Source: Oscillatoria sp. SIO1A7
GTDB lineage: Bacteria > Cyanobacteriota > Cyanobacteriia > Cyanobacteriales > Laspinemataceae
DNA: 64,000 nucleotides
Assembly (NCBI GenBank): GCA_010672965.1
Contig: JAAHFN010000034.1
Coordinates: 1 to 64,000, forward strand
Reading direction: 5' to 3'
Translations under genes and position numbers: made by a program
In this document: positions 20,779 to 22,709 of the stretch, in pieces
Numbering within the stretch: position 1 is the stretch's first letter
Layout: the number at the start of each line of letters is the position of its first letter
The notes under the pieces: generated by a model
Told to the model about the DNA's origin: nothing
Seen by the model: only the letters and a program-made list of their open reading frames with translations
The model's database searches: none

Positions 20779-21156
20779 ATGACAGGGGAAACTATTTGGA
20801 TCGTCACCGAAACCGAGCCCGAAGAGGCGACCCAAGAAGTAAGCGGCGCAAAGGATGGAACATCTGGGAATCCCTGGAGCCGCGTCAAAGAACGGACGGC
20901 CCGCGCAGTCGGCAGTGCCCGGGTCAGCGCCGATAAGCTAGAAGCCAAAATGTCCGAGTTCCTTCAGGTTGTCGGGCGAGTATTCAAGAATGCCGAGCAA
21001 AATGCCAACTTAAACTCGGGCTTCTGCCTGGATGAAATACAGCTATCCGTCGAAATCACTGGCGAGGGGGAGGTTAAGTTAGTGGGCAGTGGGGTCAAAA
21101 CGGGTGCGAAAGGAGCAATTACTCTCAAGTTCAAGCGGGAAAAAGCTAATTCTTAA
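20779..21156 (+). CDS. small conserved partner protein of the caspase-GUN4 gene (possibly a peptidase-co-occurring trypco/Pepco-type domain)
   Basis: 125 aa; its stop is 3 bp before the caspase start; C-terminus is a beta-rich G/K segment (VEITGEGEVKLVGSGVKTGAKGAITLKFK). The domain assignment is from memory only. Confidence 0.5.
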   Translation: MTGETIWIVTETEPEEATQEVSGAKDGTSGNPWSRVKERTARAVGSARVSADKLEAKMSEFLQVVGRVFKNAEQNANLNSGFCLDEIQLSVEITGEGEVKLVGSGVKTGAKGAITLKFKREKANS

Positions 21157-21158
21157 TC

Positions 21159-22709
21159 ATGGCAAATTGGGCTTTAGTTGTTGGGATTAACCAATATTCT
21201 CGCCTCCAGTCCCTATCTTATTCTGTCAGCGATGCAGAGGCGATCGTAAATTACTTCTCGAAAGAGGCAGGTTTCGAGCAAATCTTCTATTTCTCGGATG
21301 ACTCGCCAGATTTTAACGCGCCGGACGGTTCTACTATTGAAAGCCAACCGACCTATGCCAATTTATGGTCTTTTCTATTTGATTTTTTTGAGGAAGATCG
21401 AGATACGCCCCTGAAACCCGGGGATAATTTTTGGTTTTTCTTCAGCGGTCACGGCATTCGCCACGAAGACAGAGACTATTTAATGCCGAGAGACGCGAAC
21501 CCCCGAGCCATAGAGCGAACGGCGATTCCAGTAAATTACGTTAGCGATCGCCTGCGACGCAGCGGTGCCGATAACGTTATCTTGTTTCTAGATGCTTGTC
21601 GCAGTCAAGGCGATCGAGCTGGCCTGGGCATTGGCATGGAAAGGCAGCAAGGGGTAATTACGATTTGCGCTTGCAGTCCTAAAGAAAAGTCTTATGAAAT
21701 TGAAGAACTGGGACAAGGGTCTTTTACCTATTCTTTATTAGAAGCCCTGCGCATTAAAGGGGAAAACAACTGCGCCACCGTCGAGCGGCTCTACCAAAGA
21801 CTGCGCTATCGAGTGCCGCTGATTAACGAGAATTATCAAAAACCCTTGCAGACTCCCTACGTTATAACGGAACCGGCGAGCAAGCTGCATTTAATTTTAT
21901 TGCCAAGGCAGGCAACTCTAGCAGACATTGCCCTGCTCAAAAACGATGCGTGGCGAGCCGAAGCAAAATCCGATTGGCAACTGGCCAAGCAACTCTGGAT
22001 TAGGGTCAATGTCGCTGCTGGCGGATCTGATATGGATGCCATAGAGGCAATTCAAAGATTCCCCCAGTGGACGCAGCAGGAAAGTACGCATCGGCCAAAA
22101 ACTGCCGATGAAACTGGTGCTAAATCTGATTTTAAAAATTCTGAAAGTTCCCAAACTGATACTGCTGAAGTCGAGCTTTTGTCAGAAAAAGGCATAGATT
22201 ACGCCCACCTGCGCGATCTCTTAGCAGCGGGCAAGTGGAGAGAGGCAGACGAGGAAACTGCAAAGAAGATGCTAGAGGTGGCGGGCCAAAGAGACTGGCT
22301 GGATATTGAAGATATCGACAATTTTCCTTGCTCCGACTTGCGCACGATCGACCGCTTGTGGGTAAAATACTCGGACGGTCGCTTTGGCTTTTCCGTCCAG
22401 GCTCGCATCTATCGGGAGCTGGGCGGCACTAGAGATTATGACTCAAAAACCTGGGAAGCCTTTGGCGATCGCGTCGGTTGGAGAAGTCAGGGAGAGTGGA
22501 TGTCATATAAGTCTCTCACATATCGGAATACCGCACCCCGTGCCCACCTACCTTTATACCTTGTGCGCACCAATCATATGGTGTGGGAGGATTATTTTGG
22601 TGGTATGGAGGACGCGGTGGAGGGGTCGGGGTATCCGTGGGGCATGTCGTTTGGGGGGGGGTCTCTTCTCTCGGGTATCTTCTCTCGCTTACGACTTGCC
22701 TCGGGATAA
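21159..22709 (+). CDS. Caspase-like (peptidase C14) domain protein fused to a C-terminal GUN4-like domain
   Basis: Caspase His/Cys dyad in FFFSGHG and LFLDACRS; C-terminus LAAGKWREADEETAKKM...FPCSDLRTIDRLWVKYSDGRFGFSVQ...FGDRVGWR matches the GUN4 N-terminal domain. Confidence 0.8.
   Translation: MANWALVVGINQYSRLQSLSYSVSDAEAIVNYFSKEAGFEQIFYFSDDSPDFNAPDGSTIESQPTYANLWSFLFDFFEEDRDTPLKPGDNFWFFFSGHGIRHEDRDYLMPRDANPRAIERTAIPVNYVSDRLRRSGADNVILFLDACRSQGDRAGLGIGMERQQGVITICACSPKEKSYEIEELGQGSFTYSLLEALRIKGENNCATVERLYQRLRYRVPLINENYQKPLQTPYVITEPASKLHLILLPRQATLADIALLKNDAWRAEAKSDWQLAKQLWIRVNVAAGGSDMDAIEAIQRFPQWTQQESTHRPKTADETGAKSDFKNSESSQTDTAEVELLSEKGIDYAHLRDLLAAGKWREADEETAKKMLEVAGQRDWLDIEDIDNFPCSDLRTIDRLWVKYSDGRFGFSVQARIYRELGGTRDYDSKTWEAFGDRVGWRSQGEWMSYKSLTYRNTAPRAHLPLYLVRTNHMVWEDYFGGMEDAVEGSGYPWGMSFGGGSLLSGIFSRLRLASG

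Follow-up and report, generated by a model that had tools for sequence, protein, structure and literature searches.

A Pepco gene directly upstream of an orthocaspase-GUN4 gene in Oscillatoria sp. SIO1A7: a probable two-gene protease-effector cassette

Introduction

Orthocaspases, prokaryotic p20-only caspase homologues of MEROPS C14, have been listed as fusions to a GUN4 domain since 2010 (Jiang 2010, PMC2853523), and MaOC3 and MaOC5 of Microcystis aeruginosa PCC 7806 are orthocaspases with GUN4 (Klemencic & Funk 2017, PMC5756287); Kaur et al. noted that caspases, kinases, trypsin and TIR domains all occur in fusions with GUN4. Here, we describe a gene pair from Oscillatoria sp. SIO1A7, located in a stretch of 64,000 nucleotides (nt) of contig JAAHFN010000034.1 (hereafter the window), in which a 125-amino acid (aa) protein of the Pepco family is encoded immediately ahead of a 516-aa orthocaspase-GUN4 protein. 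The pair is a widespread cyanobacterial cassette, and an ordinary member of the recently characterised Pepco-protease family in its orthocaspase form.

Trypco proteins were defined by comparative genomics, and Pepco is said to have been defined in the same way by Nicastro et al. in 2023. Experiments on a Pepco protein are described by Evans et al. (bioRxiv 2025.11.14.688446, a preprint of November 2025; PMC12642450) for Streptomyces subrutilus, in which the gene (for SsPepco) lies upstream of a trypsin-type Avs4 (SsAvs4). SsPepco forms β-barrels of 9-10 subunits that are resistant to sodium dodecyl sulfate, and is cut by the protease after Ile97 with removal of a 2-kDa tail; SsPepco truncated exactly at Ile97 kills Escherichia coli, toxicity is lost if the truncation is moved by one residue, and the amphipathic helix is needed for toxicity (PMC12642450). 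Heat resistance of the barrel and permeabilisation of liposomes once cleaved are counted among the traits of the family. According to Evans et al., Pepco is paired with serine or cysteine proteases that bear FGE, transmembrane-STAND or peptidoglycan-binding sensors, and Pepco itself is prevalent both in Actinobacteria and in cyanobacteria; their paper makes no mention of GUN4 (PMC12642450). An earlier reading of the window made from the letters alone (the sequence-only reading) held that none of its components is characterised, which is superseded by the Pepco experiments in this preprint and by the cataloguing of orthocaspase-GUN4 fusions since 2010.

The Pepco and orthocaspase-GUN4 genes

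Open reading frames (ORFs) of 125 and 516 aa lie on the forward strand where the sequence-only reading had placed them (Table 1), and both start with ATG. The TAA stop codon of the first (21154-21156) is separated from the second by 2 nt, not by the 3 bp first reported, and we infer that the two genes are translationally coupled at this junction. In searches with hidden Markov models (HMMs), the small protein matches Pfam Pepco (PF24393) over the entire model (positions 1-112 of 112; E=5.6e-35; 120.7 bits against a cut-off of 27), in agreement with its proposed kinship to small peptidase-co-occurring domains. The large protein matches Peptidase_C14 over residues 3-233 (E=3.2e-22) and GUN4 over residues 342-467 (E=1e-44), as anticipated for its C-terminal region. 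Given these matches to Pepco, Peptidase_C14 and GUN4, both ORFs are real genes and not chance ORFs. The two proteins are 100% identical to hypothetical proteins at NCBI, F6J93_26115 of Oscillatoria sp. SIO1A7 for Pepco and F6J93_26120 of the Oscillatoria sp. SIO1A7 metagenome-assembled genome for the protease. Profile searches place Pepco in a family that amounts to 1330 clusters when grouped at 90% identity and to 1100 representatives when grouped at 50%, with the best matches listed being cyanobacterial-type sequences only.

Conservation of the pair

One genome per species was scanned with an alignment of 35 Pepco sequences; this yielded 234 loci, the best 80 of which – all cyanobacterial – were kept. 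In 69 of these 80, an ORF of at least 150 aa starts on the same strand no more than 400 nt downstream of Pepco, and the spacer is 5 nt or less in 39 of the 69, with a modal length of 1 nt. When these 69 partners and that of the window are searched against Pfam, Peptidase_C14 is present in 52, FGE-sulfatase in 34, GUN4 in 16 and CHAT in 11 (51 C14, 15 GUN4 and 11 CHAT if the window is excluded), FGE being the commonest fusion domain (34/70) and M48, kinase and WD40 domains being rare. GUN4 is found behind either protease type, C14-GUN4 proteins being encoded in the window and at loci L004, L006, L013, L020, L028, L067 and L079, and CHAT-GUN4 proteins at seven loci. L004 and L006 are Microcystis loci, and encode direct homologues with Pepco upstream, the genes overlapping by 1 nt.

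The association also holds in the reverse direction. When homologues of the large protein are clustered, more than 110 of the 120 best clusters have the C14-GUN4 architecture. Five C14-GUN4 homologues were sampled across different genera, and each is preceded by Pepco at a distance of 3-21 nt; they come from a JGI metagenome population, a 9.3-Mb genome, Okeania sp. KiyG1, Nodosilinea nodulosa and Gloeothece citriformis PCC 7424. The flanks of these five loci are unrelated, often containing Uma2, PIN/PhdYeFM or transposase genes. The tight two-gene cassette claimed from the sequence is thereby confirmed, with a C14 or CHAT partner at 62 or more of the 69 loci and Pepco at every locus examined in reverse.

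Clustering of all ORFs within 6 kb of Pepco at 81 loci turned up no further partner that occurs commonly and is also found in the window. Recurrent extra ORFs encode a GHMP kinase, DUF3082, a His kinase, a response regulator and Uma2; these are absent from the window and reflect Nostocales synteny. With no further conserved neighbour, the unit consists of two genes. A 148-aa ORF at 20133-20579 (+), pointed to earlier as a third gene, does exist, and it is no part of the system: it matches no family, has no tblastn match at the 80 related loci, and lies 200 nt away with a strong palindrome in between; it was rejected as a third component.

At one of the loci, L051 (6517-7248; Symploca sp. SIO2E9), the gene that lies 186 nt past Pepco encodes a 244-aa protein with GUN4 alone and no protease domain, and the locus may be a degraded cassette or a split arrangement.

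The protease domain

The His/Cys dyad reported for the large protein is present as FFFSGHG at residues 93-99 and LFLDACRS at residues 142-149, and alignment of the 52 C14 partners bears out that it is intact, with His98 conserved in all 52 and Cys147 in 51. The acidic residues of the pocket, D25, D145 and E180, show little or no variation among Pepco-linked C14 domains, and the pocket pattern ADSHDCE is found in 41 of 51 partners, the window having SDSHDCE. A profile of the C14 domain matches metacaspases in its N-terminal half (LRGCINDA corresponding to L19..D25-A26) and MALT1 in its C-terminal half (YAGHGY to FSGHGI, LLDMCRK to FLDACRS, and AFEIQ to SYEIE); a single-sequence search of the PDB with the C-terminal half gave no match, and profiles were needed for the alignment. 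The positions of MALT1 and metacaspases aligned to D25, D145 and E180 are presumably S1 residues that bind a P1 arginine, and the acidic pocket is consistent with a predicted specificity for Arg or Lys at P1. The characterised non-caspase C14 enzymes all cut after Arg or Lys (PMC5756287).

An AlphaFold2 (AF2) model of the 516-aa protein has a mean predicted local distance difference test score (pLDDT) of 82.6, and Foldseek matches it to the MALT1 paracaspase first (E=6e-12), followed by metacaspases and by GUN4 structures (1z3y, 1y6i and 4xkb). Downstream of the C14 domain, AF2 places helices at residues 254-269, 273-286 and 292-310 (block-mean pLDDT 89-94 over residues 251-300), and this three-helix region is conserved in 46 of the 70 partners, including those of the FGE type. 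Membership of caspase_w_EACC1 (NCBIfam NF047832) was considered and rejected, as a score of 61.3 bits against a cut-off of 140 puts the protease outside the EACC1 subfamily.

The GUN4-like domain and the exchangeable C-terminal region

The GUN4-like core aligns with the Thermosynechococcus elongatus and Synechocystis GUN4 structures as far as the HLPL loop; PDB searches match 1y6i, both with the isolated domain (E=7.9e-21) and with the whole protein (E=3.1e-20), as well as 1z3x. Past the core, L466-Y-L-V-R-T471 stands in place of the LxNxLR motif, AF2 gives residues 471-500 a pLDDT below 50, and the region varies among all protease-GUN4 partners, with LxNxLR kept in none of the 11 in which a motif scan found the preceding HLP loop. 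Arg214 of GUN4 is essential for porphyrin binding; bilin binding requires the LxNxLR motif with its Asn211, a motif that GUN4 paralogs have lost. As the LxNxLR/Arg214 signature is missing, the porphyrin-sensing input suggested earlier for this domain is unsupported by the sequence, and tetrapyrrole sensing is hypothetical. Relative to GUN4 (Sll0558), a Mg-chelatase cofactor, the domain shares the core 'cupped hand' up to the HLPL loop, but is fused to a protease and lacks LxNxLR/Arg214 and confidently modelled α7 and α8 helices. Nor is the form of a GUN4 orthologue matched – stand-alone, of about 230 aa, with an N-terminal helical domain – because here it makes up the C-terminal portion of a protease of 516 aa. 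Judged by these features it is GUN4-like in fold, is no GUN4 orthologue, and belongs with the GUN4 'paralog' class.

The closest relative of the window Pepco, P0002 (79% identity), is encoded 9 nt upstream of a 1404-aa C14-NB-ARC/NACHT-WD40 protein. Over its residues 1-312, that protease shares 76% identity with the one in the window; similarity breaks off at 312, where the segment that AF2 models as disordered (residues 311-336) begins. Because similarity to this STAND-WD40 relative ends at the linker, GUN4 occupies a swappable sensor or regulator slot; the constant module is Pepco, the C14 domain and the three-helix element, and everything past the linker is exchangeable, whether STAND-WD40, FGE, GUN4 or another domain.

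This exchange accounts for the earlier association of the window genes with NTPase-centred systems, since the slot also takes STAND-WD40, though the window locus itself has no NTPase. No NTPase domain is present in either protein or in the scanned ORFs of at least 140 aa from 8.6 to 28.5 kb, and none recurs as a Pepco neighbour across the 81 loci, so that the suggested NTPase-centred system is not what the window contains; it is the close relative that has NB-ARC/NACHT fused instead of GUN4. The nearest NTPase gene is 16 kb away on the opposite strand with housekeeping genes in between, and is unrelated. It encodes a 1036-aa EAD8-NACHT-HEAT-NCC-H protein (38979-42089, -), a STAND NTPase that bears effector-associated domain 8 (EAD8) and is typical of the conflict systems of Kaur et al. 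(2020).

A tblastn search of plasmids with the GUN4 domain returned 44 records, all cyanobacterial, in which the domain is fused to kinases, NACHT, AAA, CHAT or ankyrin modules; the best match, on a plasmid of Nostoc CENA543, is in a different context without Pepco. A PADLOC match to PD-T4-6, a Ser/Thr-kinase defence protein, was rejected, as only positions 273-429 of the 450 in the model are matched (by residues 306-471, around the GUN4-like domain) and there is no kinase domain. No paper tying PD-T4-6 to GUN4 was found in a literature search.

Pepco anatomy and a predicted cleavage site

The layout of Pepco was derived from the alignment of 35 homologues and from an hmmalign alignment of 146 representatives at no more than 50% identity. 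At the N-terminus I6, W7 and T10 are invariant among the 35 homologues, and AF2 places a strand at residues 5-9; the following linker, residues 11-44, has a pLDDT below 50 throughout. Within this otherwise variable segment 119 representatives have a residue at position 25, and in 98 of them it is basic (Arg in 50, Lys in 48), making K25 a candidate alternative or additional cleavage site. The helix at residues 51-80 is modelled with block-mean pLDDT values of 77, 79 and 74, has a hydrophobic moment of 0.51-0.62 at a mean hydrophobicity of about zero, and contains the invariant residues L54, F61 and F69 (35 homologues). AF2 strands follow at residues 82-93, 99-101 and 114-120, over which the conserved motif is L84..E92..G95-E-G97-E..K100-L..G103..G105..K111-G..I114..L116..F118-K-R120. 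The membrane-active features of SsPepco – an amphipathic helix and strands of alternating polarity – are thus present in the window Pepco, both in the sequence and in the AF2 model.

The activating cut is predicted to fall after the near-invariant Arg120 (KFKR|EKANS), and by analogy would be the counterpart of the Ile97 cut in the serine protease-linked SsPepco. Among 134 representatives with a residue aligned to R120, it is Arg in 118 and Lys in 4, and none of the 134 ends at this residue; the tail beyond is 1-27 aa long (mode 3-4) and variable in sequence. As a one-residue shift abolishes SsPepco toxicity, even a one-residue tail could keep Pepco latent.

Covariation of Pepco residue 120 with the protease pocket was also considered. 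Variants ending in KFKT pair with an A96 protease, as do two KFKR loci, and the covariation is therefore uninformative.

Four of the representatives are fusions: P0190 (302 aa), P0201 (280 aa), P0295 (546 aa) and P0238 (263 aa). These comprise two Pepco-GUN4 proteins and one Pepco-CHASE2 protein (the added domain following the FKR motif), and one with PIN_3 ahead of Pepco. If the Pepco-sensor fusions are real, what the protease removes as a 'tail' can be an entire domain.

Relationship to known protease-effector systems

The window locus resembles SsPepco-SsAvs4 in having a small Pepco gene directly upstream of a protease fused to a sensor, and in a Pepco protein composed of an amphipathic helix, a β-rich body and a short charged C-terminal tail; FGE-fused partners, the commonest in our survey, are likewise named in that paper. 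The two differ in that the window protease is a cysteine orthocaspase rather than a trypsin-like serine protease, in that its sensor is GUN4-like with no STAND ATPase, and in the predicted P1 residue and tail (Arg120 and 5 aa, versus Ile97 and 20 aa). Compared without sequence alignment, the window Pepco also adds an N-terminal strand and a disordered linker of about 35 aa before the helix.

GUN4 orthocaspases such as MaOC3 and MaOC5 have the same architecture, in which GUN4 comes after a C14 domain that is p20-only and carries a His-Cys dyad; the papers describing them (PMC2853523; PMC5756287) draw no tie to an upstream Pepco or to any substrate. MALT1 and metacaspases are the best fold and profile matches of the protease, sharing SGHG, LDxCR and acidic residues at the D462 and E500 positions, and have Arg/Lys P1 specificity, MALT1 being Arg-specific. 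They differ in that identity to the window domain is 14-19%, in that the window protein is without death, Ig or p10 domains, and in that the metacaspase pocket Cys is Ser or Ala in Pepco-linked proteases. Bacterial gasdermin-protease and EACC1-caspase modules are similar in that an adjacent protease strips an inhibitory C-terminal piece off a latent pore-former, but the effector folds are unrelated, and those effectors form oligomers only once cleaved, whereas pre-assembly is reported for Pepco.

A model for activation and its alternatives

We consider it probable that the pair forms a self-contained protease-effector cassette, with a mechanism modelled on SsPepco-SsAvs4. Pepco would be co-produced with the protease and pre-assembled as an inert oligomeric β-barrel with amphipathic helices. 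Once the GUN4-like domain senses a signal, the protease would become active, given its paracaspase-like fold probably via induced self-association, and would then trim the short C-terminal tail of Pepco after Arg120. The trimmed barrel would permeabilise the membrane and kill the cell, the outcome being abortive infection or programmed cell death. The small protein had been offered as a regulator, inhibitor or substrate of the protease, and it is as a substrate that it fits the published mechanism (PMC12642450). The toxin-activation step is carried over from one preprint on a distant homologue, and the Arg120 cut and the trigger are proposals.

Several observations weigh against this model. 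SsPepco, the Pepco that has been characterised, comes from an actinobacterium, has a trypsin-like Avs4 as its partner and is cleaved after Ile, its tail being 20 aa long; the residue in the window differs, being a conserved Arg120, and its equivalence to Ile97 is an analogy, made without alignment. A tail of only 5 aa, and of 1 aa in some homologues, is an unusual endopeptidase substrate, and a second conserved basic site, K/R25, sits in the exposed Pepco linker. The metacaspase pocket Cys, mutation of which lowers metacaspase activity, is S22 in the window and Ala in most GUN4-type or Pepco-linked partners. The AF2 monomer of Pepco is of low confidence (pLDDT 58).

Activation might instead proceed by a cut within the G-x-[K/R]25-x-G motif of the N-terminal linker, alone or together with R120, freeing the IWIVT strand from the helix and β-hairpin body, in which event caspase-linked Pepcos would differ from SsPepco in the licensing step. 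The basic residue at position 25 is conserved within a segment that is otherwise variable and disordered, is more accessible to an endopeptidase than a site 1-5 residues from the C-terminus, and has a precedent in the two-site licensing of the sister MBL and α/β-hydrolase effectors. We nonetheless regard this route as unlikely: the motif is wholly missing in some homologues (e.g. P0117), C-terminal trimming alone suffices for SsPepco, and were R120 merely structural, the rule that no Pepco ends at this residue would be left without an explanation. More doubtful still is that Pepco acts as an adaptor, chaperone or inhibitor, any lethality being due to orthocaspase proteolysis of cellular proteins. 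Earlier comparative-genomics papers did treat Trypco and Pepco proteins as adaptor domains, and effector-less caspase-like proteases are able to protect alone, but deletion of SsPepco abolishes toxicity, the truncated protein by itself kills E. coli, the window Pepco has the amphipathic helix and strands of a membrane-active protein, and strict two-way co-occurrence fits an obligate effector.

Another reading is that the cassette is primarily a switch for physiological or stress-triggered death or homeostasis and not for defence against phages, the GUN4-like domain informing the orthocaspase of free tetrapyrrole or bilin as a sign of photo-oxidative danger or pigment turnover. Porphyrins and bilins are ligands of the GUN4 fold, GUN4 was proposed as an allosteric tetrapyrrole sensor in such fusions by Kaur et al., the orthocaspase literature ties these enzymes to stress-induced cell death, and the domain was restricted to cyanobacteria in the plasmid search. 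Set against this are the absence of the Asn211 and Arg214 signature from the window and from the 11 partners whose HLP loop was located by the motif scan, in a region modelled at low confidence; the sharing of the GUN4 slot with STAND-WD40 and FGE/C-type-lectin domains, which are regarded as invader sensors; and the location of the cassettes among toxin-antitoxin modules, Uma2 genes and transposases, as is typical of defence genes. On balance we think such a switch rather improbable, and prefer the SsPepco-like protease-effector model.

A more specific proposal, to which we attach little confidence, is that the GUN4-like domain truly senses a small molecule or a phage protein and, with no NTPase involved, switches on a paracaspase-like orthocaspase. 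A change in the pool of tetrapyrroles or bilins would then be coupled directly to a pore toxin that is already assembled and is licensed by a trim of as little as 1-5 residues after Arg120. If so, the change could stem from cyanophage pigment-metabolism genes, phycobilisome breakdown or photo-oxidative stress, and cyanobacterial orthocaspases, for some 20 years without known substrates, would gain both a defined executioner substrate and a trigger.

The locus is one of hundreds of near-identical cassettes, and its value is as a clean minimal example, with two genes, no NTPase and a 5-aa tail. It joins two separate literatures: that on orthocaspases and programmed cell death, which lacks substrates, and that on the protease-activated Pepco pore-toxin mechanism. 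The unstudied part is the GUN4-like sensor, and the locus isolates the question of what a signature-less GUN4 senses when it replaces STAND-WD40 or FGE; the predicted Arg-specific licensing through a minimal tail is of interest as well.

Features and genomic surroundings of the cassette

Table 1. Coordinates of the cassette, its domains and its borders in the window
Feature	Position	Strand	Basis
Palindrome with 14-bp stem, GAAACCCGGTTTTTccaAAAAACCGGGTTTC, between upstream ORF and Pepco gene; left border	20658..20688		Repeated element
Pepco gene, 125 aa; predicted latent pore-forming effector	20779..21156	+	Pfam PF24393, full-length match
Pepco N-terminal strand IWIVTE, residues 5-10	20791..20808	+	35-homologue alignment, AF2
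Pepco G23-x-K25-x-G27 motif in disordered linker (residues 11-44); alternative or second candidate cleavage site	20845..20859	+	
Pepco amphipathic helix, residues 51-80	20929..21018	+	AF2, hydrophobic moment
Pepco β-strand region, residues 82-120, alternating hydrophobic/charged, ending LKFKR	21022..21138	+	AF2, alignment
Predicted scissile site after Arg120 (codon 21136-21138) and 5-residue tail EKANS (21139-21153)	21136..21153	+	Inferred
Intercistronic junction TAAtcATG, 2-nt spacer	21154..21161	+	Sequence read
Orthocaspase-GUN4 gene, 516 aa; protease and sensor	21159..22709	+	Pfam Peptidase_C14 and GUN4
Peptidase_C14 (p20-like) domain, residues 3-233	21165..21857	+	Pfam E=3.2e-22
Catalytic His98 codon	21450-21452	+	FFFSGHG
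Catalytic Cys147 codon	21597-21599	+	LFLDACRS
Three-helix module, residues 254-310; travels with protease domain	21918..22088	+	AF2
Disordered linker, residues 311-336; domain-swap junction	22089..22166	+	pLDDT <50
GUN4-like core domain, residues 342-467; putative sensor	22182..22559	+	Pfam E=1e-44, model 2-125/141
Divergent C-terminal tail, residues 471-516, at the expected site of GUN4 helices α7/α8 and Arg214	22569..22706	+	
Heptamer tandem array ATTGGGC x7.4, from 2 nt past the protease stop; right border	22711..22762		Tandem Repeats Finder score 90

The palindrome on the left border is presumably a terminator or insulator. It belongs to a repeated element, GAAACCCGGTTTTT-n3-AAAAACCGGGTTTC, present at 20658-20688, 26665-26696, 26736-26766, 44216-44248 and 51948-51983, with 15 half-site matches across the window where 0.77 would be expected, and resembles a dispersed hairpin repeat or a small element of the miniature inverted-repeat transposable element type. 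A scan for sigma-70 promoters found no forward-strand site upstream of Pepco, and a terminator scan performed no better than shuffled controls, both being uninformative for a cyanobacterium. On the right side, the 5 kb past the cassette are taken up by many tandem arrays, some of heptamers and some longer (ATTGGGC, GGGTGTG, CCAATGC and a complex one of about 580 bp), at 22711-22762, 23700-23774, 24184-24220, 24424-24576 and 26772-27473, and resemble the short tandemly repeated sequences of filamentous cyanobacteria.

Several neighbouring genes are recorded as separate observations. A full-length Major Vault Protein (MVP) homologue of 894 aa (Vault repeats, Vault_2/3/4 and MVP_shoulder) is encoded 1.3 kb upstream at 16799-19483 (+); it is not recurrent beside Pepco loci, and bacterial and cyanobacterial MVP homologues have been described previously (bioRxiv 10.1101/872010; PMC3762200). 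Further upstream, a receiver (response regulator) domain is fused to DUF3685 (E=1.7e-72) in a protein encoded at 10883-12862 (+), which appears unrelated to the cassette. Downstream, the gene for a PIN_3 protein (25193-25777, -) adjoins that for an HTH_17 protein (25995-26552, -), and the two are probably a toxin-antitoxin pair.

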